A stretch of 55,873 nucleotides of DNA, counting the filler, from Jimgerdemannia flammicorona (lineage: Eukaryota), in assembly GCA_003990765.1 (NCBI GenBank). It is 3 parts of 3 records of this genome, joined end to end, with 100 filler letters (N's around TTAATTAATTAA, not from the genome) between each part and the next. Parts side by side here need not be neighbours in the genome. Positions count along the whole stretch, not along the records: positions 1 to 18,560 come from RBNJ01002179.1; 2 more parts are not named here. One strand, given 5' to 3'. Each line of letters begins with the position of its first letter. Position 1 is the stretch's first letter. This document shows positions 5,266 to 48,526 of this stretch, in pieces. The translations under genes and the position numbers were made by a program. Below the pieces are notes generated by a model. That model was given only the letters and a program-made list of their open reading frames with translations. It had not been told where the DNA came from and ran no database searches.

Positions 5266-6094
5266 TTAAAAATCAATATCCTTATTGATTTGGAAATTGA
5301 GAACCAGGAGAGAGAAAGGTGGAGAATCTTCCTCAGTATTATTGTCTTCTTCTTCTATAGCTGGAGGAGTGGTTACTAATGGTTCAATGTCCAGGGTAGA
5401 GAAGTTAATGAGGTCTGCAAATGATTCTTGAACTGGTATAGGTATTGAGGTAGGGGTTCTCTATCTAATATAATTGGGACCATCTAAGTAGGGTTTTTGA
5501 TCCTCATGTCTGGAGATATCTATTTGGATGAGCAGTCCTTCAAAGAGGTCAGAGAGACCTTGGAGCCATTGGTCTGGATTATTATTTAGGAGGAGACTCT
5601 AGTGGGGTTTGTAGTCAGTGGACTTGAGGGTAATCCAGAAGTTGGCTTCTTGGGCTATCTTGATCTCTAGCTTATCATTCTTGAGAAAGGAGAGGTTCTG
5701 GAAGTCCTTCAGTTGTACATAGTTGAGGTTAGAGATTGTAAAAGATATATGACATATGATTTGATGGACCTTCTTGGCTAGTCTTTGCTCATATCTGTCC
5801 AGATTGGTCCAGTCTGAGACCTGGTCAGTGGGTAGGTCATTCACACATTAAAGAAGTTGATGATCAATTTCATATTTATGCCAGATTTCTAGGTAGCTGA
5901 TAGCAAGGGTAGGCCCTTTCAATGACTTTATGGCAGTTGAGAACATAATGTCCTAGATTCTAGCTGGAGAGATTAAGAGCCTCAGAGTAGTGGTTCCTTC
6001 CTTGAATAGCAACCTGGATATGTCCAAAGAGATGATCAATCTGGCTTAGGAGGGGCTGGCTATAGCAGATAGTTTGATAGTGGGTAGCAGGAAT
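5266..6094 (-). pseudogene. Family A accessory ORF (ORF3), degenerate copy
   Basis: Includes EIWHKYEID and LDRYEQRLAKKVHQIICHISFTISNLNYVQLKDFQNLS (ORF 5599-5844). Ends EDIDF* at the PPT, as at 17275-18168. Confidence 0.8.
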
Positions 6095-9000
6095 TCTTGT
6101 CTTGTCTTTTCTTTAGAGAGGAGAGGTGGGGATAAGAGTTGTAGTATATTTATGTCTTGAGTATTTATACTTATTTGTCTATCTAGTGTGATCTTGATTT
6201 AATCATGCTTTCTAGCAGAATATATGACCTGTTGCTGTAAGTGAGATATATGCTGGTTACATGAGAAAATTCTGATTTCAAAGATATTGCCACTTACAGT
6301 TGTGGTTACACAGGGTTGACAGATCTTGCTCCTCTTTTTTTTTATCTAATTGATATATTTGCAAGAACTGGCCATCCTTGTCTAGGGTGAGGGCTCTCAT
6401 TATCATAGCTGGGGGTTTGAATCTCTCAGAAATAGTATTTTTTGTAATCTGAGACAATTCCTAGTAATAATATTTATCACATGGATAGACTTAGATTGGT
6501 TTCAACATTGTTGGCTTTCCTATATAAAGTATCTGTCATCATTTAGTAGAGATGATATAGATGTTATGAAATGGAGTTATTCAAATATATTTTACTATAC
6601 TATACTAGGTTGTTCTTCACCTAAGTATCTTTCTTATTAATTAGATATAGTATTTCTTTTTCTGTTAATATTTGGTATTATATATTCTAGATAAATATAT
6701 AGTATCTTATTTCTTTGCTATACATATACTCTAAGCTTTAAAGCTGTAGTTTCTTTCTTTGCTAGAGAGTGAGTGTTTCTATGTAGTCCTGGAGGGCTTT
6801 ATATATATTCTCCAAAGCTTTCTCTTTTTCTCAAATAGTATCATAGATGAGATAACTCTTCTACTTGATAAGGAAAAACTGCTTAACTGTTTTGGGATAT
6901 TTGTGGATCTTGTGATCAGGTACTTCCTCAATTTCAAATTCCCCATAATTATTGATTCTAATTGGGAGTAGTGGTAGAACTAATACTCAGAAAAGGGGTT
7001 CTTATAATAGTCCACCAATTGGCTGATATGGAATACTGGGTATACTTGAATATTATAAGAAAGTTGTAACTTATAGTTGACTTTGCTGACTTTTTCCACA
7101 ATCTTATATAGTCCAATTCTTCTAGCATAGAGTTTCTTGGCTGGTTGTTGTACCAGGATATCTGGATGGAGATAGTTTGTTCTAAGTATGACTATGTCAC
7201 CAATATTATAGGAGACTTCTCTTTGCTTCAAGTTCACATACTTGGCTTAGTAGTTCTGTACTTCTATGAGAGCATCTTTTGTCATTTGGGTAAGATCAGA
7301 AATGGTCTTGGCCAAATCTTGAGCTGCTGGAACTGCTGATTTTGCAGTAGTGCTCAGGGTTCTTGGGTGTTGACTATGGTTCAGGAAGAATAGAGTCTTA
7401 TTTGTAAATATTTGCTAGCTATTGTTGTAAACAAACTTGGTATGAGCTGGGTATTTGTCTCAATTATTCTACTTGTAACAGCAGAAGATACTAAACATCT
7501 GCTTAAGAGTTCTATTGGTTTGCTCAGTTTAACCATCAGTCTGGAGATAGTAGGTAGTGAAGAAATTCAGCTTAGTTCTATAGAGAGAGAAGAATGCCTT
7601 CCAGAAGTTACTTGTAAACTTGAAATCTCAGTCAGATACAATAATGCTAGATATGCTATATAGTCTGAATACTTGGTTGAGGAAAATCTCAGCAATCTCT
7701 GGTATTGTAGTAGTAGTCTTAATAGGTACAAAATGGGCTTGTTTGCTTAGGCAGTCCACAAATACTACAATGATATCCTATCTTGCCTTGGTCTTGGGGA
7801 GCTGGACAATGAAGTCTATTGCAATCTGATCTGAGATAGGCAGGGGTTGCAGAAGTCCTACAGATAGCTTATTACTGCTCTTAAATATTTGGTACATCTT
7901 GTATGAGGTCACAAAGTCTTTGATATCCTTAGTCATCTTTGGTCAGTAGAACTCTCTTAAGAGGAGATTGTAGATCTTTTTGAAACCAAAATATCCTACT
8001 ACAGGAGTATTATGGATTTCCTGTATGATCTTGAGCTACAGAGTATCATTATTGGGTACAACTACTCTGTCATAGTCTCTGTAGCTAAGTCCATCATGGT
8101 AAGTAAATCTCTTGGACATTTGCCTCATGGGTTCTGGGACCTTGGCCTCTGGGTCTTGATAGAATTGAAGAAATTTCACCAGAGAGCTGTCCTATTGGTA
8201 GCCATTTTTGATTATCTTTATAAGGTCTCTAATTATCTTAACTATGAAGATAAGTTTATCTTCTATATATCTGGAGAAACCATCAGCCATGCAGTTGGTT
8301 TTGTCTGAAATATACTTGATTTCTATATCAAAGTTGGTAATGATTTCCATTCAGTGAGCTTATCTATGGATCAGTATGAGCTATGTATAAATATATCACA
8401 GAGTATAGTAATCAGTATAGGCTACAAATAGTTATCCTAGGAGGAAATAGTACTATTCCTAGAGTACAGTAACAATGGTCAGGAGTACCTTCTCATGGGT
8501 AGTATATTGAGTCTCAGCTGACTTGAGCTTTTGAGAAAGGTAGGCCACTAGGTGATCTTCTTGACTGAGTACTGCCCCAATAGCAATATTAGAGATATTT
8601 GTGATCAGAGTAATTGGCCTAGTAGAGTTAGGTGCAATTAGCACTAGGGCCTCAGTAAGGAGTCTTTTGAGATAGTCCATAGCTGGAGTATACTTGAGGG
8701 TCTATTTGGTCTTGATGTTCACTCCTTTATAGGCCAGACTGATCAGTAGGGCTGCAATAGCAGAGTATTCTTAGATAAATCTTTGGTAGTAGTCAGTAAT
8801 ATCCAGAAAGTGCTAGATTAGCTTAAGGGTAGTGGAAATGAGAATATCCTTGGGGTGGATACCTTTTGGGGGTCCATATTGATACCTTCAGCAGAGATGA
8901 TATGTTCTAGGTACTCAATCTGATCTTGATAGAACTTGCACTTACTCATCTTAGTATAGAGTTAGTATTCTTACAGAAGGATCAGTACCTGCCTGAGGTG

Positions 9001-9794: not shown

Positions 9795-10544
9795 TATAAT
9801 AGAATGAGCAAACAAATGAGATGCGATATGTGATCACATAACCCAGCAATGATGTCATTATATGAATGAGTGTGACATATGAGATTACAGACAATATGAA
9901 TGATGCGAACGATGTGAATGATGCAAACAACGTGAATAAACAATATCTAGCTTATCCCCAGTAATCGGCGCCACAGCAATCAATACCACAGCAACCAGTG
10001 CCACAGCAATACTGATCATTGTCTAGCAATAGATGTCACAATTACAAACCTCACTCATACTTAGTCAGAAATCATGGACCAACTTGTATAAATACCCCCC
10101 AGTTTCCATCTGAAATAAAGCAGTTTTAGTTTAGTCCTTGATACAAGAATCAAGTCCCCCCCCACATACACACATTCCCCTGAGTCTAGTAATGACACCT
10201 AAGTGACTCTAGTGTTTCTAACTAAACTCTAGAAGTCTAGCTAATTTCTGCCACAACTGAGACTGGTATATAAATTTCCAAAGATTTAAGTAAACCCATT
10301 GAATCTGAATTCCAAGATGAATTCAGTCTATGCACAGCAAAGAACAAGACCCTTGAAAGATAGGACATATCAAAAGAGAAAGATATTTGAAAGATAAGGC
10401 ACTGCCACTATAACTACTTTTAAGTGAGCACTTTCTCAAACTGAAGGCTTCTTAGTACACATTGTGTACTAAGTCTCTAAGTAATAGTCTTACTTCCCTA
10501 ATTATCTAAAGGATAAGAGAGGGGTAGAAGTGAGAGTTATTACA
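9795..10544 (+). repeat. Family A 5' LTR (750 bp)
   Basis: TATAATAG...GTTATTACA; TATAAATA at ~10087 and AATAAA downstream; homologous to 18180-18560. Confidence 0.92.
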
Positions 10545-10558: not shown

Positions 10559-12508
10559 GATTACCAAGCCAAGAAGGTACTAAGAACATACTCCTGAAGT
10601 TGGAACAAGACCAACCTTGGACAGGAGTAACTCCCAGAACCAACTGTGGATCCCCAAATCAGAGCCAAAGAAATCCTTGCCATTAGGACCAAGTGGTACC
10701 AGGAAACCACAGACCCAGGGATCCACCAGCTTGTAATTAACTAGGCTTACAAGAATCTATATCAGGCCTTTTGAACTTACCATCCAGGACATAGAAATAT
10801 AGTCAGCTGCCATATCTACAAACTTCTCCATAGATATATTGGAACCACTAGGACCCCAGAATCTACTGCTGCAGCCACCCAGGATTTTCTAGATTATATC
10901 ACACTCCCTGCTGCAAGAGAAGCAGCTGCCAAGTGGATTACCTCTGACAGATATCATCATACCTCTACCAAGACCTCTCTCTACTACAGGCTAGTTGTAT
11001 ACTATGCCTCTGCCATAACCAGATATGAGAACGAGCAAGCAGGTCACCCATCCTCTACTGCTGAACAAGGAGTAGGTCCATCTACCTAGTCAGAAACTAA
11101 TATCCTCTTTGAAGGACCTAGTTAGTACAAGGATGTATTATCTTATCAGGGAAGGAAGTCAGATGAAGACTCTACAGATTATCAGTCTAATGATAGCCAA
11201 CTAGGAACAGCAGGCCTAGGACTTTACCAAGGAACTACAGGTCAAGAAAATCAGACCCCAGAACCAACCCAGCCACCTATATAGAGGTTTGGTTTATCCT
11301 CTCTCATAGGAATCTTTGATCTGATATCTGAGAATCAAGTAACCCCAAGTCATACAGCTCTACAACTCCACCAAGCAGAACAATCTTTAGGAGAATCTAC
11401 TCCTACAGACCTACCACCAATAGTCAATACAATAGTAGATGCCAATATTGTAGCACTGACTATCCAACTAGCTACACTAGTAGGGATAGTAGGACAGATT
11501 TCTGAACAGAACAAGCCAACTAAGACTTTGCGAATCCTAACATTTAGTGGAAAAAACAGTAACATTGAAAACTTCATCAATATAGTTAATACAGATTATT
11601 GAGCAAACCAATGGAATGACAATTGAGTATTAATAGGAATACTCACTAACAACCAGAACAACACTCTCCAATAGTTGTTTGCCACATCAGCAACATAAGT
11701 GGAAACAGTAGCCACATTCTTTACTGGAACAGCAACTAAATTCTGGCAAACCTTGAAACAGCACCCAGTAATCTGAGAAGACTGTTCTCAAGTTACAGGT
11801 CAGACACAAGTCCATAATAGACCAGGTTGGGATGACTATGAAGCAGGCCCAGGACTTAAGGCCTTACTACTGATCAAATTCCAAAATGCAGCCTATATAT
11901 AAGAAACTTAGAACAAATTGTCCCAGATGAAATTCCACAAGAATGGCGAGAGGGATCTTGAAACCTTTGTCACCAGGATGGATGCCTATCTCAAAACCAT
12001 TAGACTTACCTACCAGGAAACCAATTTGGCCATCAATGGTACCAGAGCCAACCATCTCTTTGTAGCCCTACCAGACTGGCTCACCCAGAAGATCAAGGAA
12101 CAAGGTCTTCTCCAAGGATGTCCCCACTACTCATAGTGCTTTGCCCAAGTACAAAGAAGAGCCTATGAAATCCTTGCTATATAAGCCCTACAAAATCAAG
12201 AATACAAGAAGGATAACCAAGATAGGAGGAATCCTACCAGGAGAAATGATCAAAGGAATGACCAAAGATATGATCAAAGGAACCAGCAAAACCCCAGAGG
12301 ACCCAGACCTCTCACTGAGGATGAAAAGAAGCAGCTTCATAAAAAGAGATTGTGCTTCATCTGCAAGAAGACAGGACACATCTCTTTCAAATGCTCTGAG
12401 AAGAGAAACAGATCAGGCAAACCCAGTAACCAGAACATTACTGTCATTAGAGAAGGTCCAGGAAAGAAGAACCCTGAGAATGTCATCAAAGTACAGAAAA
12501 TATGGTAC

Positions 12509-13560
12509 AAGGCTACCATCTCCACTAAGGCCCACCTAGTGCTCCAAACGAGTCAATCCAGATGGGATTCGGATGGATTCGAATCCCATCTGGATCAACT
12601 CGGATTGGATTCGAATCCTATCTGGATCAACTCGGATTGGATTCGAATCCCATCTGGATGGATTCGAATCAACCATTGTTTTGATTTCTAAATTGGACAA
12701 TTAAATGTTTACATCAATAACTCGATAACTAATCATCCAAATTTAATGTTCTTGGTGTCATTTGAAAGCCCTTAATAAGGCCTTTCTAATGATATCAAGA
12801 ACATTAAAATCGGATTACGCGTTGCCGAGATATTAAGGAAAATGTTCTATTTGACGAAATTTCCAAAATCGGCAAATCGAAGAATTTCCAAAATCGGCGA
12901 TTCAGACGGTTTCCTTCATAACTCAGCAACGTATGATCTGATTTCAATATTCTTGGTATCATTAGATAGGCCTTATTAAGGGCTTTCAAATGACACTAAG
13001 ATCATCAATTTTGGATGATTATTCATTGAGTTATTGATGTAAAAATTTAATTATCTAATTTGGAAATCAAAACAATGGTTGATTCGAATCTATCCAGATG
13101 GGATTTGAATCCCATCCGAGTTGATCTGGATGGGATTCAATCTGAATCAATTCAAATCCAATCCGGATTAAATTGACTCGTTAGGAGCACTAGGCCCACC
13201 CAACTGATGCTGGATATAATCTCTACAGTAGCCAAGACCTCACTATTCTACCAAGTACTAATGCTACAGTATGAACAGGGATTACAATGTAAGCTCCCAA
13301 AGGTACATACATCTGCCTTGCTGAGCGAAGTAGCCTAGCCAAAGAGTTCAAAATTGGGCTAGGAGGAGGAATAGTTGACTAAGGATTTACTAACAAAATC
13401 CATGTCATCTTGCAAAATTTTGGAGACACATCATTTAAAGTCAAAGTAGGCCAAAGGATTGCCCAAGCAATCATTGAAGAAATCTGTCAAGATCTTACCA
13501 TTGAAGAAGTCTCCGAGCTCTCTCAAACAGACTATGGCAAGAAAGGGTTTGGATTAACCA
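12509..13560 (+). pseudogene. dUTPase domain of A3 between the gag zinc knuckle and protease, split by a MITE
   Basis: Joined across the MITE: KATISTKAH|PTDAGYNLYS...AERSSLAK...GGGIVD*GFTNKIHVIL...GQRIAQ...YGKKGFGLT, matching the five trimeric dUTPase motifs. Confidence 0.9.
12537..13192. mobile_element. Non-autonomous hAT-type foldback MITE (656 bp)
   Basis: 8-bp TSD GGCCCACC at 12529-12536 and 13193-13200; TIRs TAGTGCTCC(A/T)AACGAGTCAAT; subterminal GGATTCGAATCC repeats; absent from the A1 copy. Confidence 0.92.
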
Positions 13561-16500
13561 ATAAACCTCCCAGTCAAAAGGTCACAACCATGAAGGAAGA
13601 TGATAAAAACTGGTACAAGAGAATTGTAGATAGTTATGTATCATATGGATGATGCCCTCATTCTATCTGAATATACTGTATGGAACATATTAGTAAATGC
13701 CATGCATGTCTCTTCAAGGTATTCAAAATCAATTCCAAAAGAAACCAAGCCCAACAGACTGAGGAATCCAAACAAGACAACCCTCCTTGTGAAGGATGGG
13801 GAGAAACTGACTTCAAGGAGACTGACAGTAATTGGGACAACAATGAGGATGAAGAGCTCAATACTATCAAGAAGAAGGACAGTTGCATCAAGTTCACAGG
13901 CCAAGTCCACAGACAGAATGTCAATGTCTTGCTTGATAGTGATACTACTAGAAACTACATCAGCACTAAGACTACTAAGAGAATTAGAGCTCAAAGCAGA
14001 CCAGCTACTGAGAAAAGAAGTGTTATCTTTGGTGATGGTAAAACTACACCATTGACCAAGATCTGTGAAGATCTCTTACTCAAGATTGGCAAATATCAAG
14101 AGAAGATAGACTTCAGTATTGTAGACCTTCCAGGACAAGACATTATTCTAGGAAAAGCCTGGTTGACCCAGTACAACCCAGATATCAACTGGAGGACCAA
14201 TGAGGTTAATCTGACCCATAAAGGAAAAAAGATCACCCTGATACCCCAGGAAGGTACCAACCATCAAGGAATTGAAATCATCTCTGCCATCCAAATGAAG
14301 AGACTCTCCTGAAAAAAAGAAAACACCAACTTTATCTGTACATTACAAGAAGTCACTGAAGCAATATTCCAGTATCTGATGAATGATATCTTTGGACCAC
14401 TCCTCAACATCTGTATTCTTGTATATATTGATAATATACTAATCTACAGTGAAATAGGAGAGTTACACTATACTCACCTCAGACAGATACTGAGCAAGTG
14501 CAAGTTCTATCAAGACCAGATTGAGTACCTAGGACATATCATCTCTGCCAAAGATATCAATGTGGATCCCCAAAAGGTATCAGTCCTTAAGGATATTCCC
14601 ATCTCTACTACCCTTAAGCTACTTCAGCACTTTCTGGGTATTGCTGATTACTACTGAAGGTTTATCTAAAAATACTCTGCTATTGCAGCCCCACTGATCA
14701 GTCTGGCTCACAAAGGAGTAAATATCAAGACTGAATGGACTCCTGAATACACCTAGACTATGGACCATCTCAAGAGACTCCTTACTGAGGCCCTAGTGCT
14801 AATTGCACCTGACCCTACCAGGCTATTCACTCTGACCACAGATACCTCTGACATTGCCATTGGGGCAGTGCTCAGCCAAGAAGACTGCCCAGTGGCCTAC
14901 TTTTCCCAAAAGCTCAAGTCAGCTGAGACCCAGTACACTACCCACAAGAAGGAACTCCTGGCCATTGTTACTGCACTTCAAGAATGGTGCCACTTCCTCC
15001 TAGAACAACTATTTGTGGCCTATACTAATCACTATACTCTGTGGTATATTCACACACAGCCCATGCTGACCCACAGACAAGCCTACTAAATAGAAATAAT
15101 TGCTAACTTTGATATAGAAATCAAGTATATCCTAGGCAAAACCAATCATGTGGCTGATGGTTTCTCCAGGTATATAGAAGATGAACTTGTCTTCATGGTC
15201 AAGATAATTGGAGACCTTACCCAAATGATCAAGGATAGCTACTAGCAAGATAGCCCCCTGATGAAATTCCTTCAATTCTGCCAAGAACCAGAGGCTGAGA
15301 TCCCAGAACTCATGAGGCAAATGTCCAAGAGTTCACTTACTGTGATAGACTTATCTATAGGGACTATAACAGAGTGGTTGTGCCTAACAATGATACTCTG
15401 CAACTCAAGATCATACAGGAACTCCATGATACTCCTGCAGTAGGACACTTTGGTTTTAAGAAGACCTACAACCTCCTCTCAAGAGAGTTCTACTGGCCAA
15501 AGATGACCAAGGACATCAAAGACTTTGTGGCCTTATGTGAGATATACCAAAGGTTCAAGAGTAGTAACAAGCTACCAGCAGGACTTCTGCAACCACTACC
15601 AATCCTGAGTCACAACTGGGATTAGATTGCAATGGACTTTATTGTCCAACTCCCCAAGACTAAGGCAGGATGGGATGTCATTGTGGTATTCATGGATCAC
15701 CTAAGCAAACAAGACCATTTTGCATCCACCAAGACTACTGCTACTGCACCAGAGATTGCTGAGATTTTCCTTAACCAAGTATTCAGGCTACATGGTATGC
15801 CTAGCACTATTGTATCTGACCAAGATACCAAGTTTACAAGTAACTTCTGGAAGGCATTCTTCTCACTCCATGAAATCAAGCTGAAGTTCTCTACTGCCTA
15901 CCACCCTCAGACCAATGGTCAACCTGAGCAAACTAATAGAACTCTCAAGCAGATACTTAGCATCTTCTGCTATTACAAGCAGAATGATTGGGACAAGTAT
16001 CTAGCTCAGACTGAGTTTGCCTACAACAACAGCCAGTAAACCTCTACAAAGAAAACTCCATTCTTCCTGAACTACAGTCAATATCCAAGGACCCTGAGTA
16101 CTACTGTGAAATCAGTAGTTCCAGCAGTCTAAGATCTAGCTGAGGCCATTTTGGATCTTACTCAAATGATAAGAGATATGCTCATAGAAGTACAGGACTA
16201 TCAGACCAAGTATGCAAACTTGAAGCAAAGAAAAGTCTCTTATAATATTGGTGACATGGTCATGCTTAGAACAGACCACCTCCACCCAGATATCCTGGTA
16301 TAACAACTAGCCAAGAAACTCTATACTAGAAGAATTGGACCATACAAGATTGTGGAAAAAGTCAGTGAAGTTAACTACAAGTTGCAACTTCCCTACAATA
16401 TCTGAGTATACTCAGTATTCCATATCAGCCAATTGGTGGACTACCATAAGAACCCATTCTCTGAGCATATAGTTTCACTACCACTCCCAATTAGAATCAA

Positions 16501-17274
16501 TGATCATGAGGAATTCGAAATTGAGGAAGTACTTGACCACAAGGTCTACAAATACCCCAAAACAGTCAAACACCTTTTTCTCATCAAGTGGAAGGGTTAC
16601 CCCACCCATGATGCTATCTAGAAAAAGAAAGAAACTCTGAAGAATGCACCCAAAGTCCTTCGGGACTACATGGAAACACTCACTCCCCAGCAAAGAAAGG
16701 AACTACAGCTCTAAAAATTAGAGCACATAGCAAACAGGAGGATACTATATATTCTTATCTGAAATATATAATACTAAACATTGCAGGAAAAGGAACACTA
16801 TAATTAATCAATGAGAAGACACTCAGATAAAGGACAATCTAGCATAGTACAGCAAAATGCATTTGAACAACTCCATTTCATACCATCTATATCATCTCCA
16901 CTGGATGATAATAGATGCTTCATATAGAACTTAGGAAAGCCAACAATGTCAAAACCAATCAAGCCCATCCACATGACAGATATTGTTACTAGAAATTGTC
17001 TCAGATTATAAGAAATTCTATTTCCAAGAGGTTTGAACCCCCAGCCATGATAATGGGAGCCCTTGCCCTAGACAAGGATGGTCAGTCCTCACAAATGTAC
17101 CAACCAGACAAAAAAAAAGAGGACCAAGATCTGTTAACTCTATGTAACCATAACTATAAGTGACAATATCTTTGAAATCAGGATTTTTTCATATAACCAG
17201 CATATGGTCTACTTATAGCAATAGGTCATACATTTTGCTGGAAAGCATGACCAAAAGAAGGTCACACCAGATAG

Positions 17275-18168
17275 GTGAATAAGTATAAATACCCAAGACA
17301 AGAATACCCTACAACTCTTATCTCCCTCTCCTTACAAAGAAAAGACAAGATAAGAATGCCTGCTACCCACTACCAAACTGTCCACAATAGCCAGCCCCTC
17401 CCAAGCCAGGTTGACTGCCTTTTTAGACACATCCAGGCTGCTATCCAAGAAAGAAACTGCTGCTCTGAGGCCCTTAATCTCTCCAGCCTGGACCTAGGAC
17501 AGTATGTTCTTAACTACTATGAACTTATCAAAAGGGCCTACCTTGCCACCAGCCACCTAGAGATCTGGTATAAATACAAAATTGACCACCAGCATCTACA
17601 ACATATAAATAGCCTACCCACTGACCAGGTCTCAGACTGAACCCATCTGGATAGATATGAGCAAAGACTTGCCAAGAAGGTCTATCAAATTATATATCAT
17701 GCACCCTTTGTGATCTCTAATCTCAACTACATATAACTGAAGGATTTCCAGAACCTCTCCTTCTCTGAGATCATAGTAGCCCAGGAAGCCAACTTCTGAA
17801 TTGCTCTCAAGTCTACTGACATTGAGCCCCACTAGAGCCCCCTCCTAAATGACAACACAGACCAATGGCTACAAGGCCTCTCTGACCTCTTTGAAGAACC
17901 ACCTATCTGAATGGATATCCCCAGGCATGAGGACCAAGAACCCTACTTGGATGGTCTCAACTACATCAGATAGAGAACCCCTACCCCAGCACCCATACCA
18001 ATGCAAGAACTATTTGTAGACCTCATTGACTTCTCTATCCTAGACAGTGAGCCATCAGTAACCACCCCCCCTGCCATTGAAGAAGATGGCAACAACACTA
18101 AGGAAGACTCCCCACCTTTCGCTTCCCTGGTTCTCAATTTTCAAATCAATGAGGATATTGATTTCTAA
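17275..18168 (+). pseudogene. Family A accessory ORF (ORF3) between pol and PPT, unknown function
   Basis: One frame runs 17275-18168 without frameshift, interrupted only by transition-type stops. Possible start MPATHYQ at 17356. Acidic/Pro-rich tail ending EDIDF*. Confidence 0.82.
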
Positions 18169-18179
18169 GAAGAGAAGGA

Positions 18180-18560
18180 TATAATAGAATGAGTGAACAG
18201 ATGAGACATGACATGCAATCATATGACCTGACAATGATGTCATCATATGAATGAGCATGATATATGAGATTACAGATAATATGAATGATGCAAACAATGT
18301 GAATAATATGAATAAATGATATCTAGCTTATCTCTAGTAATTGGTACTGCAGCAATCAGTACCACAGAAACTAGTACTATAGCAATACTGATCATTGCCT
18401 AGCAATAGATGTCACAATCACAAACCTCACCATAGTTACCAAATTAGTCACTCATACTTAGTTAGAAATTGCAGACCAACTTGTATAAATACCCCCCAGT
18501 TTTTATCCAAAATAAAGCAGTTTTAGTTCAGTCCTTGATATAAGAATCAAGTCCCCCCCC
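18180..18560 (+). repeat. Family A 3' LTR of A3 (truncated by contig end), preceded by PPT
   Basis: PPT aagaagagaagga then TATAATAGAATGAG, homologous to 9795 onward. Confidence 0.92.
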
Positions 18561-18660: not shown

Positions 18661-18730
<70 letters not shown>

Positions 18731-18732
<2 letters not shown>

Positions 18733-19644
18733 TATACAGACAGCAAATCTGATGAAAGTGAAGATGATGTACCTCTCCTTCACCCACCAACACCTTATCC
18801 AGCATATGAGACTGATGATACCATCTTGTGGGACAGAGATGAAGTTACAATGTATTATTGCCTCAGCGAACAAGAAGAAGTAATCTGCAAACCACTCTTC
18901 CTAGACAACTACTTCATCAGAGATGATATCATCAATGGTGATATCATCGAAGACTACCCAGACAGTGTCTAAACTATAAATAGCTTAGCAGTCATAGTGT
19001 AGTTAGATTAGTCTTGTACGATGTGATTGTGAACTGACTCAGCAGTCAGACAATCTCTTGACATGTCAGATCACACTTGTACTATGTGACTGCATTCTGA
19101 CTCAGTAAGGTACTTAGTGCTACATCCATATCTAGCATAGTCCAGATAGCCCCTCACTAGTATAAATACCCCCTCCCCCAGACCTCAGAATTTCAGACAA
19201 AAAGACCTGAAAACTCCTGAGCACTTTCCCAATATCTCTTTACATAAACTACTTCTAGTATAGTAATATCATGAATAGCAAATAAACCTATTTGATAACC
19301 CACAAACCACTCTTAAGTAAATTCACTCCCCATTAGGTCCCACTCCTAACCCTATCACGAAATTTCCTAATTGGGTATTGTCTGCAGTGATACGCCAATT
19401 CAACTAAGCTGGTCTTAGTTTCTTGAACTTTCTGAAATACAGAAAATCCTGAACATCCAGAACTAGTCTGAAAAAGGACTTTGGTTGAGATGTTAACCCA
19501 ATCTTGAAATCAATAAGTATAGAGGATATACTCTATATGAAATTGATCTTGACTATAAGAAAACAGTCTTCTAGAATATCCAGAACTTCTAGAAAACTCT
19601 TTTGGAACTATGTAATGGTTACCCTAAAAAGCAACCCTCTTACA
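18731..19644 (+). repeat. 3' part of a family C LTR, including the last ~80 codons of the LTR-encoded ORF
   Basis: Homologous to 54226-55146 and ends CCCTCTTACA. The ORF remnant is open to its stop at 18972 (...DIIEDYPDSV*). Not followed by a PBS, so it is a 3' or solo LTR. Confidence 0.9.
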
Positions 19645-21478
19645 AATACCCTTATATTATTGGAATATACTCTTCTCAAATGATTGATGATTGCTTCTCT
19701 TATATCAATAAACTGGTCCAAAGAAGAACCAATAGAAGGAAAGCTCTTATAACTAAAATTACCACTATCAGATTAGACAAACTACTTATACTACAAGCTT
19801 TTGTCAATAGAGCATCTGTCAAAATCATAATAGATAGTAGTATCTCTAGTAACTTTATCAATAAAGAAATAGTCAACAGACTCAAGATTCTAATCTCTCT
19901 AGTATAATAGATTTAAGCAGTTGCTACAGCTGATGGAATCTCACATATCATTAGTAAGGAAGTCTACAATCTACTCTTCTGAATTGGTAACTATTGAGTA
20001 TATATTATACTCTAGATTATATCACTTCCCAATAATAAAATCATTCTTAGGACCTTATGGTTAAAATAGAAAAACCTGATGATTAATTGGATTAACTATT
20101 CTCTGACTATCAAGAAAGAATACTATAACTTCAAACAGCAAGACAAAAAAGACCCACTTAGTTCTAGTGACTCTGAACCAAAGATTACCTATATTAATAA
20201 GCTATAACTTAAGAAATTAGCCAAGAAATGTCCCCTCTTTGCTATCTCTATTCATCTATCCAAAGAAGAATCCAAAAATCTCAAAGAAGACTTTTTCAAA
20301 GTCAACAACTATGTCAGACCACTACTCTAGAAATTTTGAAACATATTTCCAAAGAAACTTTCAAAAGACTTACTATCTAAATGAGCAGTAGACTATATTA
20401 TCAAGATTATCCCAGATGCCAAGCTCACCTTCAAGTCAATCTACTATATGTCTTTTAGAAAAATTGATATACTCAAGAAAGAGATTGATGAACTTCTAAA
20501 ATAAGGATTCATTAGACCTAGTATATTACCCTATAGTGCACCAGTTCTCTTTATTGTCAAGAGAAGAGAAGACCTATAAATATATATAGATTATTATGAC
20601 CTCAATAAGCAAATTATCAAGAACTATTACCCACTATCCAGAATTAATGAAATATTTAATAGACTTACCAATCTATAATTTATAAGCTCTTTTGATCTAT
20701 AAAATAGCTATTGACAAATTGCCATAAAAGAAGAAGATATCTACAAAACTGCCTTCTGAACTTACTATAGATATTTTGAGTTTCTGGTTATATTCTTTAG
20801 TTTAACTAATACTCCTACAATCTTCCAGATACTGATGAATACTATCCTGCACTTATATCTGGACAAATTTGTTGTTGTCTATATATATTGACAATATCCT
20901 AGTCTTTAGCAAAACCCTGGAGGAACATCTTGAACATCTTGAACTAGTACTATTAAAACTCTGAGAAAACCAACTCTTTGCAAAACTTAGTAAATATGAA
21001 TTCCTTCTGAAGGAAATTCAATTTCTTGGACATATTGTCACACTCAATAGAATCAAAGTAAACCCCAACAAAATCTCTGCAATCAAGAAATAGTCTAGAT
21101 CCAAGAAGCTAAAGAACCTCCAGTCATTCCTAGAACTAACAAACTATTACTGGTAATTTGTTACCAACTTCACTAAGATTGCTACTACCCTTACTCAAAT
21201 GACTAAGTACAGCAAGAAAGAAGAACAGCCCTGGACTACAAAATAAGAAAAAGACTTTAACAATCTTGCAAATTAGAGACCTGAACAAGATACAGCCTTT
21301 CAAGCATTAAAAGATATCTTGATAACCACTCTAGTACTTCAAGTGACAGACCCTGCCCTACTATATAAAGTTATCACTAATACCTCTAACCTTACTCTTA
21401 GAGCAGTGCTCATGTAAGAAGGATACTCTGTGGTCTACCATTCTTGCAAGTTCAATGATGCTGAAATTAACTACGATT
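19645..21478 (+). mobile_element. Degenerate Ty3/Gypsy pol remnant (protease, RT, start of RNase H)
   Basis: VKIIIDSSISSNFI (protease), PYSAPVLFI, KTAF*TYYRYFEFLVI and YIDNILVFSKTLEEHLEHL (RT). Confidence 0.88.
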
Positions 21479-24400
21479 TGTAACATTTTATAAAATCAGT
21501 GCTGGGGGTTTAAACTCAAAAGAGTAATAGCTCTATGTGGGTTACTTTTTTATTTTGTTTTTCAATTTTGTATTCATAATTTTCACATTCATGCTTGGCT
21601 AGCACAAAGTATGCTAGAACCTACTAGAGTTTGTATAGAAAATAATAATTTATTTAGTAACATGCATTATGTTGTTTTCTATTAGATAAGTAAATACACA
21701 CATGTGGTAATATGCTGGAACTCCATGCAGTTCTTATATAAATGTGAGCTTTAGTATGGTCTGGGTTATATTCTGTTTCAAAGACATAGCTCATCCATGT
21801 GCTCTACATACCATTGGTGCTGATGCTATTTTTTGAAGATGTGTAGAGAAATATATACAGGTGGTGGAACCCATCACAAAGATATAGATAACCTTTCACC
21901 AGTACCATTCAGATGACATAAGACTCAGACAATACTTTTCCAATATTTTTGGTAATAGACAACTATCAATATGGATGGCAATGATCGAACTGGTGAGTAT
22001 GCTGACCAGGGGGGCAGTGGAGCCTTTGGCTGGCAACAGGTGGGGAGGAGGGAAGATGGTTTGGGGATGCCAGGGGCCTCAATGGCTGGCCATGGTGCTG
22101 GCGGTAGAGGGAGGGGTGGATTGAAGCAGTATAGAGGGGAGAGGTTGATCTTTACTGATAAGGTCAAGATGGGGAGGATGGCCTCAGGTCTGGATGGTTG
22201 GCTGGGTCTGGGGAAGATGTTGACAGTTGCTGCTAAGGGTCAGAGAGGTGTGCCCAGGGGAGTATCTGGTGGTAGGGGAGGGGGGGAGTAGGGGCTGGTG
22301 ATGTGACTGCTGATGGAGCTGTGACTGGGAATCTGGAGAAAAATCCAGATGTGACAGTAATTGATAGATTAGGACAGAGGGTAGGTATGAGATCCAGGGA
22401 CCTGGTGGATGGGGTGATGAGCATAGTATTGACACCATTACTCAAGAAATCAAGGTCAAAATTTGCCATCATGATGTGCTTCAGGAGCTTGGCAGTGACT
22501 GTGAGGATGATCTTGGGGCTGGTGGTGCAGGAGGTGGAGGGGGCAGTAGTGGTGAAGTTTTTGAAGAGGAAAGAAGGGATTGAGGTGGGGTTTGTGAAAG
22601 AGGAAGTATTGCTGGCTACTATAGAGAAGGAGGTGATAGTAGGTAGAGTTGTGGTCCCTATGGCCAGGTACATGTGCTGGGACCCCCAAGTAGTACAGTT
22701 GACAATATTGGATCTCCCTATGGTATTGAGGGAGAGGGCCAGGGAGTTAGTTGTGGGGGTGGTCAAGGAGTATGGGGAGATTGTGGATGTTGGGTTCAAG
22801 ATCTAAGAAGGAATGGAGCTCAGGACTGGTGATATTGATGTCCAGGTAAGGCTGGCCGGAAAGAAGAATATGGAAAAGATACAGGATTGGCCAGTGACTC
22901 TAAAGTGGGAACTAGTAGAGTACAAGATTGTGTGAGTGAAGAGGACTCTGGAAGAAGAGGAGGATCTGCTTGAGACTCTTGAGGACCTGGAGGGAGCAGT
23001 CAAGAGGAGGAGATTAGTATAGCAGGAGTATGAAGTGAAGATAGTAGTGGAAGTTGTCAAGGGGAAGAGAACTAGGGTGGACAAAGTGACCTAGAAGAAG
23101 ATGCAAGGGAAGAGAATCCAGAAGGAGTTGCTGGCAAAGTTGGGGAATAGTGGGGTAGGCGATAGCACAGGGGATGAGAGGGTAGGGTTGCACATGAGTA
23201 ACTGGGCAGGGGGTGGTGAGATGGTCCAAGGAGGTGCCTAAGATAGACTGAGGGAGGAGGAGCAGAGAGGTGTGGAGGTGGATGCAGAGATGAGTGAAGA
23301 AGTATAATCTCAGTATAGTGTCCTAGGGGGGGCAGAGGGTGAGGAGGAGCTACTGGATATCCCAGATGAGGAGTGGGATGAGTCAGTGAGGAGGAGTGCT
23401 CTGGTGGACCCAGGGGTGGGGGATGGCCAGGTCACCCAAGGTTTGGTGGAAGCAGTTGATGAGGAGAAGTAGCTGTGGAAGACTTTGGAAGGGGTGGCAG
23501 CAGAGGAGCTGAGGGGAGAGAATTTCTGAGTTATGGAGGAAAGGTATTGAGAGGAAATTCTTCATGGGGAGGAGATGCTAAGGAAAGTTAGGAATGAGAT
23601 CCTAGCAGTACTATTAAAATCAGTCAATTATCAGATCAATGACCAGAGAGAGAAGGAACTCCAGGAGATTGTGAATGATAGGGTAGCTTACTTGTAGGGA
23701 TTGAGGAAGAGATTGGAGAAGTGGAGAGTGGTCTGTGTGAACTATCAGGCAGAGATAGAAGTGGTGGATAGGGTAGAATATCAGGAGATCTTGGAGGCAT
23801 TGAATGCTCAGGCCATAGCAGAGGGAGACTTAAATGTAGAGTGGTGACTGGATCTGGCTGGGAATGAGATGAGTATGGAATACTAGGCTGAGTTATTACA
23901 TTTAAATATTATTCAATATGAATAGTATAACTAGAATATTCTCTTTGAATGTGAATGGATTGAGAGGAGTGGCTTGGTGAAGGTTAATATTTGGCTGGCT
24001 CAAGGAACTGGATGTGGATCTTTTCTTACTACAGAATGTATACTATAAGGCAGATGTCGACTTTCAGAATTGGATGAGAGAGTGGGGGAGAGCAGCAGTA
24101 TGGTTCAGGTGAGTAGGTATCCTAGTTTGGTGGGGGATGGGGGACATTGATAATATTGGATATTGGGAGAGTCAGTTGGTGTATAGAGTGTGGAAGAGGC
24201 CGGGTTGGAGCCCTTTGACAGTTGGGTCATGTTATTGCCTGGCAGAGAGGGGGGAGTGGGTGAACTGGATCAGGAATTTGCAAGAGGCTAACATTATGGT
24301 TGAGGTTGCAATTGATTGCCTGGGGGGAGATTTCAACATAGTAAGGGATAATGTGGTAGACTAGACTGACAGTGGGAGGGGGACAAAGGACTGAAGTAAC

Positions 24401-27400
24401 AGGTTGGATGGTTGGATGGAGATAGAGAGATTGAGCTCTCTAGTGGACTCAGAGAGACAGTTCTGAGAGGATTGTCAAATTTATACTCACTGGGCAGCTG
24501 GGCTGGGTTCTAGGATTGACTGGATACTGACAGCAAAATACTAGAGAGTGGGTGTCTGGGCCATACTGAAAGTGGTCTAGTGTCTATGGTCTGATCACTG
24601 GGGTCTGCTTGGGGGGGGAGAGGTTTGGAGGAAGCAGAGATGGGCCTGGACATTGGCAGCTCAATTCCTCTTTGCTAAAAGATGCTGATTTATGAGCTGA
24701 CTGGGAGAAGGAGGTCATTAGAAAAATCAGTCAATAGTGAGAGCAGGGCCTGGCAATAGGAGATCATTGGAGAAGGCTGAAATCATGTGCTCAGAGATAT
24801 TGGAGGGAGGTGGGGAAAGGGAGGAGTATCCAGCAGCAGTAGAGAGTACACTGGGCCTTGCAGAGACTGGCAATGCTCTTGGAGAGATGGGCTGGTAAGC
24901 TAGAAGATGGCAAGATGATAGACTGGCATCTTGCAAGGATTCAAAAGGAAGTCAGAGAACTTAAGGAGGTGCTATGGTTAGAGGAGGAGGCTAAATTGAA
25001 GGAGATGGTAGCAAGATTGTGGTGGCAAGAATTGGAGGAAGGGGAGTGACCCACTCAGTTTTTATCATGTATGCTACAAGCATGGTAAACTAAGTAGTGG
25101 TGGGATGATATATTAGATGAGAAAGGAGAGATGGTGGTGGGGACTTCAGCAATTCTGGAATTGCTAAGGTCCTGCTGGGAGAACCTATGGAGTGAGGAAG
25201 AAGGGAGTAAAGATGCCTTGGACATTGAACAGCAGTTGGAGGGTTGGTACCCAAATCTAGTGATGGGTCTAGGGGCTCTGGGGGGACTGAGTGAGAGGAG
25301 AGGAGGTTAGTGAGGTCCTGGCTTTGACAAGCAAAGAGACAGCACTGGGAGAGAATGGGCTTCCCTGGGATTTCTGAAAGAAGATGACCAAGATAGAGAT
25401 TATGTTGGAGGAGTTGACAGGGATGTGTGATGAGATTCTTCAGTCTAGAACTTAGATTGGGGGCCAGCATCTAGGGCTGGTCTCTTTGCTCTTTAAAGAT
25501 AAGAGGAGAAGAGAAGATTGGAAGAACTGGTATTTGATCATGCTCCTTAATATGGATCACAAGCTAGTTACAAAGGTTTTGGTGGCTAGGCTGTAGAGAA
25601 TCACTCAGCAAGTGCTGAGAGTTGAGCAGAGAGGTTTTCTTGGTGGTCAATTGATCCAAGATAAGACAGCCTGGGTCCATGGAGTAATTGAAGGGGCTCA
25701 GGCTGCTGGGGTTGATAGATAGCTGGTGTTTCTAGATCAGGAGAAGGTATATGATAGAGTGCAGAGAATCTGGCTCGATGGGATATTGAAGTGAGTGGGT
25801 GTTTCACCAGAGTTCAGAAGATCACTAATCAGTCTTTTGGAGGACAGTCAGGCAGCCTTGGTGGTCAATGAACACAGGGGTGTCACTTTCTCTCTGGGTT
25901 ATAGGGTACTGCAGGGGGATCCTTTATCACCCATTTTGTATGCTCTTTCCTTGGAACTCCTATTGGATAGAATCAGGCATTGAATTGGAGGTTTAGACAT
26001 TCTGGGGATTAATTGAAAGGTGGGGGCCTTTGCAGACAATATGGTAGTTGGTTTGGGTTCATTGATGGATATGGAGGAATTACAGCAGACTGTGGAATAG
26101 TATGAGAGGGGCTCTGGTGCTAGGCTCAATTGGCACAAATGTGAGACTATAGTACTAGGTGGCGGAATAGTTAGTGGCAATATGATTGGGACAGTGGTGT
26201 CAGCAGGAGACCCCATTCATTATCTGGGGATCTACTTCTCTATATATGAGTCCCTCCTGCCTCATACATGGTGGGAACAGCAACTCCTAATATAAGGGGA
26301 GGTACTTTTGCGGTGAGGCAGTCAGTATATTTCCTTGGCAGGAAGGGTGATAGTGCTGAATATATATTGGCTGCCAAAGCTATAATATATGGAGTATCAT
26401 TTGGATTTCCCAGTGTGGGTGGTCAGACACCTTTTGAAGATAGCAAGAATATGGATCTGGACTGGATGGCAAAGTCAGATAGGATGGGAGGTATTGACTT
26501 TACCTGTGGATAGTAGCAGACTAGGCTTGGTGGACTTCTCCAAATACCTTCTTTACCTATGAGTATGGTGGCTGAAGAGAGTGAGTGAGTTGAGGGGACA
26601 GGAGTGGGTACCACTCATGTAAAGGGTGTGGGAGGCCCAGTATTCTCTCTATAGTACATCTGGTGATCTGCTTGCAATGATGGCCCTGGATGGGAGTGAG
26701 AGGATATAGTATAAGAGCTTTTGGTGGGGGGTAGTGGATGGTGTCTGGAGAATTGGTCTACAATAACAGGGTGATGAAGGTGAGGGAGATTGGGGACTAC
26801 AGATGTAGAGATAGGACAGGCTTCTATTAGGTAACACTTTGGTGGAGGACTTTTGGCTTGATGATGGTATAGAGTACTTGTGGAGCTTAGGGGGGGACTT
26901 GTGGTCTACTGCATAGTAGAGGGTGGGGATCGGTAAGAGGTGGAACTAGAATGAGCTTTGGACTTGGAACAAGCAGATGATGCAGTAGCTCCCCCCCAAG
27001 TTCTGAGTGGTGTGGTGGCAGTTCCTAAGGCAGAATGTGATGTTGAACTTTTGGTCTGGATACTTGATGGTAAATGACTGGTATGAGTACGAGGAATGTT
27101 TGGATGTTGGACAGAAAGGGGAAGTGGTTCAAATGTCTGAACATTGGCTTGAAGAGTATAATGTTCTGGGGGTTTTTTGGCACTGCATAGCAGACAGGTT
27201 AGGGCTACAAGCCTTGGTGAGAGGAGAAGTGGGGAGATAGAGAGAGCTCCATCACAGGTTAGTAGGGGAGATTGGGAATAAATGGCTGACCCTGGGCTGG
27301 GCTCTGGCAATTTGGGTTGGGCTAGCCAGGTATTAGTTATATATATTCGAGGAGGGTCAGCAGATAGGGATTAGAGATAGGGTGGTATGGTGGAAATGGC

Positions 27401-27708
27401 TGCTTTTGGACATTCTGAATAGCTGGTGACAGAGGTGGAGACCTAGTGGAGGTAAACAATAGAGATTAGTAGAGTGTATATGCAGGAAAAGTGGAGGGTG
27501 GGTCTGGGTGGTGGGTGACTGAGTCATCTTCCAATGGCAAGGGGTGAAGGGGGGTGAGGGAGACCTGAAGGGTATTGGGTGAGGGGATGGGGGTCATATT
27601 GTATTATTAATATAAATTGTGGTAATAAAAGGAAGTCCAAGTAACTATAAAAAAAAAAAAAAAAAACAAAAAACAAAGATATAGATAATGGTTCAAGCAG
27701 TTATAACA
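21479..27708. repeat. Probable ~430-bp LTR (TGTAACA...TATAACA) split by the LINE; occupies 21479-21891 and 27689-27708
   Basis: TG...CA termini once the LINE and one TSD copy are removed; CpG-free. No matching TSD or partner LTR found. Confidence 0.45.
21892..27672 (+). mobile_element. Apparently full-length, degenerate L1/Tx1-like non-LTR retrotransposon (ORF1 ~21971-23885; ORF2 APE-RT ~23918-27580)
   Basis: APE motifs FSLNVNGL, GGDFNIV, SRIDWIL, SDH; RT motifs EQRGF, FLDQEKVYDRV, VLQGDPLSPILY, FADNMVV. AATAAA at ~27624 and A-rich tail. 16-bp TSD ACAAAGATATAGATAA at 21876-21891 and 27673-27688. Confidence 0.94.
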
Positions 27709-27790
27709 TGCCACTGAGATCAAGGTTGGTCAGCACCATGTTCTGCTTGAAAGACTCAGCAAGTGCGCGTGCACCCTCAGTATAAACCCT
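27709..27790 (-). pseudogene. Single ribonuclease-inhibitor-like leucine-rich-repeat exon, truncated by an insertion
   Basis: Minus strand reads RVYTEGARALAESFKQNMVLTNLDLSG, matching the RI-like LRR consensus EGAxALAxxLxxNxxLxxLDL. Confidence 0.7.
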
Positions 27791-28097
27791 TCTACCTTCA
27801 CATAGACGAAAACTAAGTGTAAGCTAAGAGTTTTTGGTGCACAATATAGAAATGTAACTTCATCTCATTTCAGGACTATCAGTTTATTATATGATTCAAA
27901 AAAAGCGGGCCAACAAGAAAAGATGTCTCTAATGAAGTGCAAAGTTTATCACTACCGCACCTAAAGAAAACGGTAATTCTGGAGAGAGAGAGAAAAATTG
28001 GCCACGTGATTCCAACCACAAAAAGTAAAAGACTAAGCCTCTGTTATTACACAAACGTCACTAAGTCGCGAGATAGACTTCAGGGTACAGTGAGAAG

Positions 28098-30333: not shown

Positions 30334-33300
30334 ATGGCCGGCAACCGCCGAAAGCTCGCCATTACCGTTGAGATCGCAAATGATCTCGTTTGTCCAGGTA
30401 CTTTATTTTTTTCCAAGCCTGTTCCTGTGAACTATCACCTGAATCTAAAGAGCATAATTTCAGAATACTGGCGTCGACCTTATACAAGTTGGGGCAATGT
30501 TAACCATTGGGATGAGGTCTACCAAAGTCATAACACGTCGGCAACAACAGCATCTTCCAGAGATGCGCTTTCGAAGGACTTAAGAGTTCTTATTAAAGCC
30601 CTCCCAGAAAAATCACAAGCCGCCAAGAAGGCTAATACATTCTTAAAGGTTGGTTATTTTCTTTGAAAAATTTGCTCTGTCATTAGCGAAGGACTACACC
30701 CTGCCTTGATCATCAACCGACCTGTTGCAGAAGGTGGCATTCAACAGCTGCTTGCTGGGGTTTGCACGATTTTCCCTGCTTGGGAAAGTCACACCCTGCC
30801 GTGATCATCGAACGACCTGTGAGAAAGGGTATTCAACAGCTGCTTGCTGGAGTTTGCGCAATTTTCCCTGCTAGGGAAAGTCTCCCTGTCTTGGACAACG
30901 TGCGACTGTTGTAGAAGGTAGCATTCCCCAGCTGCTTGTTGGGTTTTGCGCGATTTTCCCTGCTTGGGAAAGTCACACCCTGCCTGATCATCGGTTGACT
31001 GTGGCCTGTCGTAGAGGGTAGCATTCGCTGCTTGCTTGAGTGCGCGTTTTTCCCTGCTTGGGAAAGTCACACCCTGCCTGATCATCGGTTGACTGTGGCC
31101 TGTCGTAGAGGGTAGCATTCGCTGCTTGCTTGAGTGCGCGTTTTTCCCTGCTTGGGAAAGTCACACCTTTCATTGATGATCGAAGGACCTGGGTAGCATT
31201 CAACAGCTGCTTGCTGTAGTTTGCACAGTCTAGCCAACTTAGCATATCATGTGCTAATCCTCTACTACTTACTTAGACCACCAACAACTCCAGCCTCACA
31301 AGTCCGAATGTGACAAGCTGTGGCCGACTTATAAAAAAACCGAGGGTATTTGAGGTAAATTCTATCTCTTATTTTAGTAACTTTCTCTTACTGAGATCGC
31401 AGGACAAGGGAGAACAAAAAGGTCTGAATGATGTGAATTTAGTTTAGGAAAACTCATATAAATTTTCGTCACTTTCCTCTTTACAAATACAATAAAGGAG
31501 ACGTCACCGGTGGGTGCACTTTTTCTATTGTATGATTTTGAAATTTGTACTATCTAGATATATTCTAACTCGGTGGCGCTGTTTAGATGCACGTTAAAAG
31601 CCGTAAGAGGAAAGGAAACCAGCAAATGAAGGAGACCGAGCAGAAGGTCGAGCAGGAGACCGAGCAGGAGGCCGAGGAGAAAAAGGAAGAGGCGAACGAC
31701 ATAGAGAAAAATGTAATTGTGGAGATCGATCCCGTTTTTGCCGATATCATTCAGGCCATCAACGAAGTCCGCGCAATGGATTATGGACATCATAGGTATA
31801 TAATGGAAATGTTGATTGCTGCTTTGCTGATACTATATTTATTCTTAACCTCACCGTTCCGCAAGCCCGATGTTTTATCGGGTCATAGATTTGCGGTCTT
31901 CATTGCTTGAAGTATCTAATGTGCGCGCGGCGGACTTCGTCCAGAAAAAGTCACTGGAAGTTATAAGTATACCAGCGAAATTTGCAAAAGGAAATCAGTT
32001 CAATTCTCCCGAGCAAATAGCAAAGCTCGTCGATATTCTAATACAGGTTTGTTTTGCTTTAATAGCTTGTGCATATTATTACTGTGATAATACAGCGCGA
32101 TCAAGTGTGTTGACCCTTCGGTCCCTTGGCAGATCCCCGCGAATACGGTGGTTGAGATTTCTGGCTTGATCCGTGAGGAAGGGACGATCGGGATTCTGCG
32201 CCACCTGATGGAGAAGGTGAAGTTGGGGTATATTTTGACGCCATCACTGCCATTAGCCGAACTTTTAGAAGGAAAAAAAGTGGAGAGCGTAGCTGAAAGT
32301 CAGAACAAAATTGCGAACCAGCTGAAAGAGATTGATGGAAAGAACACTGATGTACAATGGGTCTTTCACGTAATCGACGAAATGTATGTTTCACTTTTCT
32401 TCCATTCTTTGTTCAGCTAAGAGTCATGAGTAATTTTTAAATCTTTCTACCAGAGCCCGAATAATACGATCAGACTTCCTTGTATCCAAGCTAACAGAAC
32501 GTGACGTAGATGTTCATTTCCTGAAGCCGTTCTATGGTGTGTTGTGGACGGAAGTGCATATAAATTTGTGAGTATTTAACATCTTAACGTATTATCCTGA
32601 TTACTTATAAGCTTACATTACAAACCTCGATCAGCGGTGAAGGAGAATCGCGGGCCTCGCGAAATCGGCGAGCTGGAAATGGTGGAGGTGATCACAATGA
32701 TTGGTTGTTTACTGTAAGTATTTCTTTCTTTTCTGCCATCTCTCTATAAATATACTAAATTTTATGTAAATAATTTGTTATTTAAAAAGAATTATGAAAT
32801 GGTTCCAGACAATATTCGAGGCCTTGAGCTCGGCGTGGTTGAGAATTCGGGTGTACGACACGTAGAAGGAACTGACAAGGCATTGTCTGATTGTGTTCGA
32901 GCAATCAAGACGGCCCGCGATCAATTGGCTCATATAATACGTATGGTCCAAAAAGAGTATGGATGCGATGCTCTACCAGATCTCCTTGTACGAGGCTTAA
33001 AGGCTATTTTCATCGTCGCGGAGCACGTGGTTGGGTTCCACGTCAAGGCTCATGTCGTCTATTTTCTCGGAGGAAACGTTTTCGCGGTCTCTGATCTTGG
33101 GAGTGAGAGGCTTCCGCATTCAGTGGAGACCATTCACGGAGCGCTACATATGTGTCAATTGATGATCAGAGTCAAGGTATTAAGGCTGTTGTATTGTTGT
33201 CACATATGGATTAAATAATTAAATTCGTTTCCACTCTTTCTAGAAATTAATAATTCACTCCAAGTTAATCATCAACGCCTTGCTCAAAGATGCACGGGAG

Positions 33301-48524: not shown

Positions 48525-48526
48525 AA

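Follow-up and report, generated by a model that had tools for sequence, protein, structure and literature searches.

A third gene in a chromoviral Gypsy retrotransposon of Jimgerdemannia flammicorona and a candidate orthologue within the LTR of its sister family

In the window analyzed here, a stretch of 55,873 nucleotides joined from three records of the Jimgerdemannia flammicorona genome, the ORF that follows pol in the retrotransposon termed element A is a genuine third gene, although dead by now, of a chromoviral Gypsy element. Another element, C, carries an ORF within the U3 region of its LTR, and element B carries one next to its integrase frame. The explanation that we favor, with a probability of roughly 0.6, is that ORF3 of A was an accessory gene with its own promoter, that the ORF of C is its orthologue, and that the border marked by the polypurine tract (PPT) shifted between the two families.

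Element A, which lies on the plus strand, is a Ty3/Gypsy element (Metaviridae) in which LTRs, gag, pol in the order PR-RT-RH-IN, PBS and PPT are all present, and the chromodomain at the C-terminus of its integrase (PF00385, E 1e-7) places it among the chromoviruses. Its 5' LTR (9795-10544, 750 bp) is followed by ACT and, at 10548, by the PBS; gag (10750-12690, approximate ends) contains a zinc knuckle; and pol (13200-16714) encodes dUTPase, protease, RT, RNase H, integrase, an SH3 domain and the chromodomain. A spacer, reported as 640 nt, separates the pol stop at 16714 from ORF3 (17356-18168), whose 270 codons include 6 internal stops and whose stop codon overlaps the PPT (18165-18179, 13 nt of which are the same as in the PPT of C). 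The 3' LTR (18180-18560, TATA box at 18483) is cut by an assembly gap. A second copy on the minus strand (5266-6170) comprises the TATA box (6161-6170) and ORF3 (5266-6094), the latter with one extra base and an altered start codon. Between gag and pol of A (12613-13138) lies an inverted repeat of 229 bp (88%) whose CpG is intact and which probably represents a young insertion of MITE-like type. A dUTPase is present in both A (13200-13560, plus strand) and B (44376-44765, minus strand), the two being 40% identical; it precedes the protease in A and lies between protease and RT in B.

The coding character of ORF3 of A is apparent in several ways. Between the two A copies, 61 of the 129 transitions in ORF3 fall at third codon positions (p 0.0007), the corresponding counts being 96/221 in the integrase and 35/104 in the spacer. 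Base composition is biased by codon position (p 5e-10), and the stop load of 6/270, as compared with 17/1168 in pol (p 0.42), indicates damage like that of pol. In the ORF3 region a synonymous excess was detected in this frame alone (ratio 0.76, p 0.035), by a test of little power in damaged copies, which did not reach significance for the A integrase (p 0.18) or for C (p 0.25 and 0.12). Relatives from soil metagenomes, which made up most of the runs listed by the search, were also recovered: contigs of all four runs examined, from two studies, cover ORF3, and at least four metagenome pieces span the frameshift site of the second copy without a one-base gap. Since these pieces do not have the extra base of that copy, they support the reading frame that the first-pass annotation had assigned. 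Among the 40 of 598 entries listed, 23 differences lie in ORF3, comprising 11 synonymous changes, 10 non-synonymous changes and 2 sites at which a stop in the window is a sense codon.

The start of the gene needs to be revised from 17275, where it had been placed. The first 81 nt from that position show no third-position bias and contain a TATA-like box, GTATAAATAC (17283-17292, plus strand), which equals the TATA box of the LTR; the gene most likely begins at ATG 17356, 73 nt downstream, the only ATG behind that box. The second copy has kept the box and lost this ATG. The suggestion that the D in the YKID motif of A might be a G altered by G>A mutation is unsupported, as D is encoded in both A copies. 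The product comprises a domain of approximately 150 residues, probably helical, followed by an acidic, Pro-rich tail; no known family in Pfam, PHROGs or PDB sequences was matched, and none of the 23 candidates from the protein search was retained as a relative.

Element C begins with a 5' LTR of 2065 bp (53082-55146, plus strand), after which comes the ACT-TGGTAG junction also seen in A, and its Gag N-terminal domain lies at 55467-55757 (plus strand). Within the LTR, an intact ORF of 365 codons (53370-54467, plus strand) is preceded by a TATA-like box at 53292-53301 and lies upstream of the LTR TATA box at 54656. In a decayed 3' end of a C copy (33702-35802, plus strand), the integrase and SH3 region (33702-34547) and a weak chromodomain are followed by a PPT at 35224, the LTR start at 35240, a TATA box at 35419 and a remnant of the ORF (35506-35802); because the PPT precedes the LTR start in this copy, the C ORF sits in U3. 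A further C LTR fragment, which includes the end of the ORF, occupies 18729-19645 (plus strand). The SH3 domain of the decayed copy is well matched (SH3_Tf2-1, E 5e-8) and its chromodomain reaches just E 0.053; this one decayed copy constitutes the link of C to an integrase, and no RT in the window is assignable to C. Third-position bias in C starts at the ATG (40/77, p 0.0006; 10/30 upstream of it). Among approximately 15 billion proteins, at the search sensitivity used, the C ORF product had only two real relatives, P0004 (66%) and P0005 (89%); its start Met is shared with P0005 and its last residue position with P0004; P0006, a repeat protein, was dropped as a chance match, and the Atlas yielded no match to the C ORF. 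Two remnants of other elements lie nearby: a decayed Copia gag (36290-36630, minus strand; PF14223, E 2e-9) adjoins a truncated C LTR, and the protease-RT region, likewise decayed, of another Gypsy element, not assignable to C, lies directly 3' of the C LTR fragment (19761-21474, plus strand).

The three elements had been described as three distinct Gypsy lineages; by their sequence features they form two, with the chromovirus A and C, a probable chromovirus, as sister families and B as a lineage separate from them. The junction of LTR end and PBS, TTACAACTTGGTAG, occurs exactly twice in the window, once in A and once in C, and the same holds for the PPT, CTAAGAAGAGAAG. The Gag N-terminal domains of A (10817-11101, plus strand) and C (coordinates above) are homologous (E 2e-7, a score reached by 0/408 DNA decoys); this shared domain is long and has no Pfam match. 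Within the window, the integrases of A and C are 33% identical in pairwise comparison, and each is 24-26% identical to that of B. The PBS of A and C resembles what we take to be the initiator-Met type, and that of B presumably the Pro type. Because the shared junction, PPT and Gag domain make A and C sister families, the horizontal exchange that had been offered as one origin of the gene is not required between them.

Gene order is the same in A and C: integrase, about 600 nt, TATA box, about 75 nt, ORF and LTR TATA box, with the PPT alone placed differently. In A, the pol stop at 16714 is followed by the TATA box at 17283, the ATG at +73, the ORF, the PPT, the LTR start and the LTR TATA box; in C, the integrase end near 34780 is followed by the PPT at 35224, the LTR start, the TATA box at 35419, the start at +78 to +87, the ORF and the LTR TATA box. 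The consensus GTATAWATAC occurs at 9 sites in the window, where 0.2 would be expected: 4 in LTR promoters, 4 at 73-87 nt before the ORF (all four such positions) and 1 inside ORF3. It had been proposed that in C the gene moved across the PPT into the LTR. The C ORF is indeed located in U3, on the 3' side of the PPT; it is simpler to suppose that the PPT and the LTR border moved, and not the gene. We propose that ORF3 of A would be an accessory gene dedicated to a chromoviral Ty3/Gypsy clade, with a TATA promoter immediately 5' of it driving its transcription, and that the U3 ORF of C would be its divergent orthologue, inherited from an ancestor that A and C share. The gene would have stayed put in the order integrase, spacer, TATA, ORF and LTR TATA, and the site of plus-strand priming would have shifted, in that the PPT directly follows the gene in A and precedes its TATA box by about 180 nt in C, with the consequence that in C the whole cassette would be copied into both LTRs. 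A single relocation of the PPT, with the gene in place, would account for the gene order, the TATA sites and the placement of ORF3 by one event. We infer both the border shift and the promoter activity of the internal TATA boxes from the DNA sequence. HMM scans of the window found no relative of ORF3 inside the internal region of C or in the A LTR, and comparison against decoys found no alignment of LTR and promoter DNA between A and C beyond the TATA box. A collinear match of the A LTR to the part of the C LTR that follows the ORF, although reached by 0/300 shuffles, was rejected since it failed against real decoys.

How far the ORFs themselves are related can be judged first from the motifs on which the first-pass annotation had based a single gene family. 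These motifs are present in A (17431-17720, plus strand), C (53406-53690, plus strand) and B (approximately 41350-41200, minus strand), their order and spacing do match (starting at residues 26/40/69/98 in A, 13/28/57/83 in C and 56/84 in B), and each of the three proteins has an acidic tail (D+E 0.22, 0.44 and 0.22). The four-motif alignment of A with C holds in its third block, which scores positive; over its whole length it is poor, with 22/130 residues identical and a negative net BLOSUM62 score. Identity between A and C amounts to 17% and resides mainly in one block of 55 residues, and the acidic tails do not align. Single-sequence local scores gave p of about 0.02 for A-C and for B-C. 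In profile alignment, 7/1000 shuffles reached the score of A-C, 17/1000 that of B-C and 853/1000 that of A-B, with family profiles of just 1-3 sequences each; 0/178 decoys reached the A-C score in either direction. An unguided two-block search across the three proteins returned exactly the register that had been aligned by eye (A69/B56/C57), and the score of this chain was reached by 19/644 shuffles with single sequences and by 0/732 with profiles. The profile chain was also reached by 1/450 block shuffles and, for each member, by 0/178 decoys, and four of five block settings were significant, the failing one giving 70/118. As the chain test was designed after the motifs had been seen, with domain limits of our choosing, we discount it. 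It is also at this register that the helices predicted for A and C match best (0.77, the best of 54 offsets), in poor models.

Combining these sequence tests, whose support is modest, with the gene order, we consider it likely that the A and C ORFs are homologous, by descent with a shifted LTR border and not by gene exchange. The similarity on which the family had been staked emerges from the shuffle-controlled profile alignment and is not significant in hhalign, HMM and fold comparisons; with profiles of 1-3 sequences, neither outcome is decisive.

Whether B belongs to the same family depends on a weaker witness, a single damaged copy. Its ORF3 (41004-41519, minus strand) has 171 codons with 7 internal stops, an acidic tail and an ATG that overlaps the end of the integrase frame; it is probably a real gene, with base bias by codon position at p 0.0003. 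The pol region of B (41503-45450, minus strand, upstream end approximate) encodes dUTPase, RT, RNase H and, as a separate frame from ATG 42570, integrase. A chromodomain was not found in B, where just a weak MLVIN_C match appeared, and B is not classed as a chromovirus; it differs from A and C in its PBS, in the location of dUTPase between protease and RT, and in the separate integrase frame. The ATG of that frame overlaps the RNase H stop (ATGA, 42562-42572, minus strand), and ORF3 similarly starts by overlap with the end of integrase (41503-41519, minus strand). Both frames begin with ATGAACCAG, a 9-mer that is not significant by itself (8/100 shuffles). ORF3 of B is probably translated by coupling to integrase. 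Two B copies stand head to head at 45437-53077, forming an imperfect palindrome of 7.6 kb; the insertion site of the young C element, at 53082, lies in the second of these copies.

A single family in all three elements, including B, would have to be very old or to have been exchanged between distant Gypsy lineages, and we regard it as doubtful. The unguided chain does put B in the register of A and C, real decoys put in the place of B never score as well (0/178), the B-C profile alignment stands at 17/1000, and the motifs of B and C begin 56 and 57 residues from the start. In no pairwise test, however, did A and B give a signal (853/1000 in profile alignment), that between B and C is weak, an HMM of A and C ranks B about 240th, the one B copy has more stops in ORF3 than in its pol (7/171 and 6/838, p 0.002), and B lacks the TATA box and would be expressed by another mode.

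A more skeptical reading, which we consider unlikely, is that the three ORFs are real but unrelated, having been captured independently, and that helical periodicity, acidic tails and a host TATA consensus mimic kinship. Extra ORFs of LTR elements are often specific to one family, according to the available part of PMC5408684, the tails do not align, and all standard homology tests were non-significant. BLASTP gave E values of 0.031 (A-C), 0.82 (A-B) and 2.7 (B-C), and hhalign P values of 0.63 for A-C and 0.21 and 0.22 for the other two pairs; with deamination-aware scoring, 29, 103 and 39 of 300 shuffles reached the scores, none significant; the best single-block three-way search and the MAFFT sum-of-pairs score (reached by 95/569 shuffles) were not significant either, nor were leave-one-out HMMs, in one of which an unrelated stretch ranked above the true targets. 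The structure models are of low confidence (pLDDT 32 for A and 43 for C), and fold searches with the C model yielded nothing beyond uninformative helical matches of a generic kind (best E 0.45; best Z 7.3, rmsd 3.2, 114 aligned). No bridging relatives were found in protein collections searched with A and C, no meaningful match to the ORFs in Pfam, PHROGs or PDB sequences, and no loci in DNA scans of viral, metagenome and genome contigs, which relied on exact matches to short patterns and overlook copies that are damaged or distant. Against independent capture stand the A-C profile alignment, the profile chain and the occurrence of the ORFs in sister families with the same gene order and spacing and in complementary placement. 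Homology between A and C by common descent remains the reading that we prefer.

Extra ORFs are common in LTR retrotransposons, nearly all of them without known function. Among retroviruses, MMTV sag and HIV nef are ORFs in or overlapping U3, as is the coding frame of C; their proteins are unrelated to that of C, sag being a membrane protein. In the available portions of the sources, fungal chromoviruses are described as carrying extra ORFs of unknown function (PMC2864245), and plant aORFs such as gene23 of Grande as lying between pol and the 3' LTR, the Grande gene having its own promoter and being nuclear (PMC7264820). The present ORFs resemble such additional ORFs, aORFs or ORF3s of Ty3/Gypsy elements in their position between pol and the 3' LTR and in having no relatives outside elements, and dUTPase-bearing fungal Gypsy elements, as A and B are, were already known (PMC2864245, PMC7264820). 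Unlike the aORFs described in those portions, the A and C ORFs are in sense orientation, non-membrane, preceded by a TATA box of LTR type, and placed on opposite sides of the PPT in the two sister families; we found no sequence link from them to any described aORF. Bdelloid rotifer ORF3s, likewise third ORFs in dUTPase-bearing LTR elements, are shared between lineages and provide a precedent for such sharing; those treated in the available text are recognizable enzymes or membrane proteins (GDSL, DEDDy, env), whereas the A, B and C ORFs match no family (PMC5408684). Our literature search, with subscription journals, Repbase entries and supplements outside it, found no paper on this ORF3 family, nor one on fungal Gypsy elements with an ORF in U3.

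With regard to function, the product of ORF3 may be a nuclear trans-acting regulator, in which a helical binding domain is joined to an acidic tail of activation type and boosts the promoters of the element. The tail is Pro-rich with a pI of about 4, and the N-terminal domains, at pI 6.1-6.5, lack a basic character. Within the tail, conservation favors F, W, Y and L (39/44 kept, as compared with 109/177), residues of a type that is more conserved in most proteins. A TATA-like box conserved at 4/4 sites is a candidate internal promoter. By analogy, we tentatively compare ORF3 to Tas of foamy viruses, which, in the available part of the source, is expressed from an internal promoter and acts as an activator of both promoters (PMC6669543). 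Like Tas, ORF3 would be a 3' accessory gene with a candidate internal promoter and a candidate activator of both promoters; unlike Tas, a retrovirus gene to which we found no sequence or fold similarity, it is compared here as a model of working only (PMC6669543).

Close rivals to the activator role are that the protein counters host silencing, by DNA methylation or small RNA, or that it escorts the RNA of the element from the nucleus, which we consider somewhat improbable. Sequence-specific anti-silencing proteins of transposons exist, and the CpG observed/expected ratio of 0.07-0.09 in old elements, against about 1 in host genes, points to strong silencing pressure. An RNA export protein is known in Cer1 (CERV), as the accessible part of PMC10309623 describes. 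No family, fold or motif points to either role, however, and the candidate TATA promoter together with the acidic tail and its kept aromatic and Leu residues is no less compatible with an activator. That ORF3 encodes an env-like or fusion protein, to which only the location between integrase and 3' LTR could point, is hardly credible, as the first-pass annotation had already held for env: A, B and C have no hydrophobic stretch (best 19-residue Kyte-Doolittle mean 0.86-1.02), and they have no Pfam or PHROGs match and a long acidic tail.

If A and C are orthologues, they exemplify how a gene cassette can enter an LTR through a shift of the PPT, by which the gene dose per element would be doubled and the gene left behind in solo LTRs. 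The intact C copy and the defined promoter candidate make the extra ORF directly testable. We further speculate, with little confidence, that a family of self-promoted transcriptional regulators, unnamed so far and common to chromoviral and non-chromoviral fungal Gypsy elements, might make these elements "complex" retrotransposons in the manner of foamy viruses, with PPT relocation moving the gene in and out of the LTR and solo LTRs spreading it as a free-standing gene.

Across the window as a whole, decayed retroelements lie nested among islands of host genes, with CpG observed/expected below 0.1 in old elements and about 1 in host stretches, and in coding comparisons between copies transitions outnumber transversions approximately 5 to 9 times. 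Judged by the general thresholds for RIP, the indices (TpA/ApT 0.73-0.86; (CA+TG)/(AC+GT) 1.3-1.6) do not point to canonical RIP. A host exon encoding a C5 cytosine methylase, which we read as DNMT2-like, lies directly beside the element nest (37742-38068, plus strand). The 6 kb at 22000-28000, in which no protein family was identified, have lost CpG and reach an extreme GC skew of up to 0.58, and are possibly a decayed non-LTR or other element. At 30696-31227, a tandem repeat with units of about 92-94 bp is located in CpG-intact DNA.
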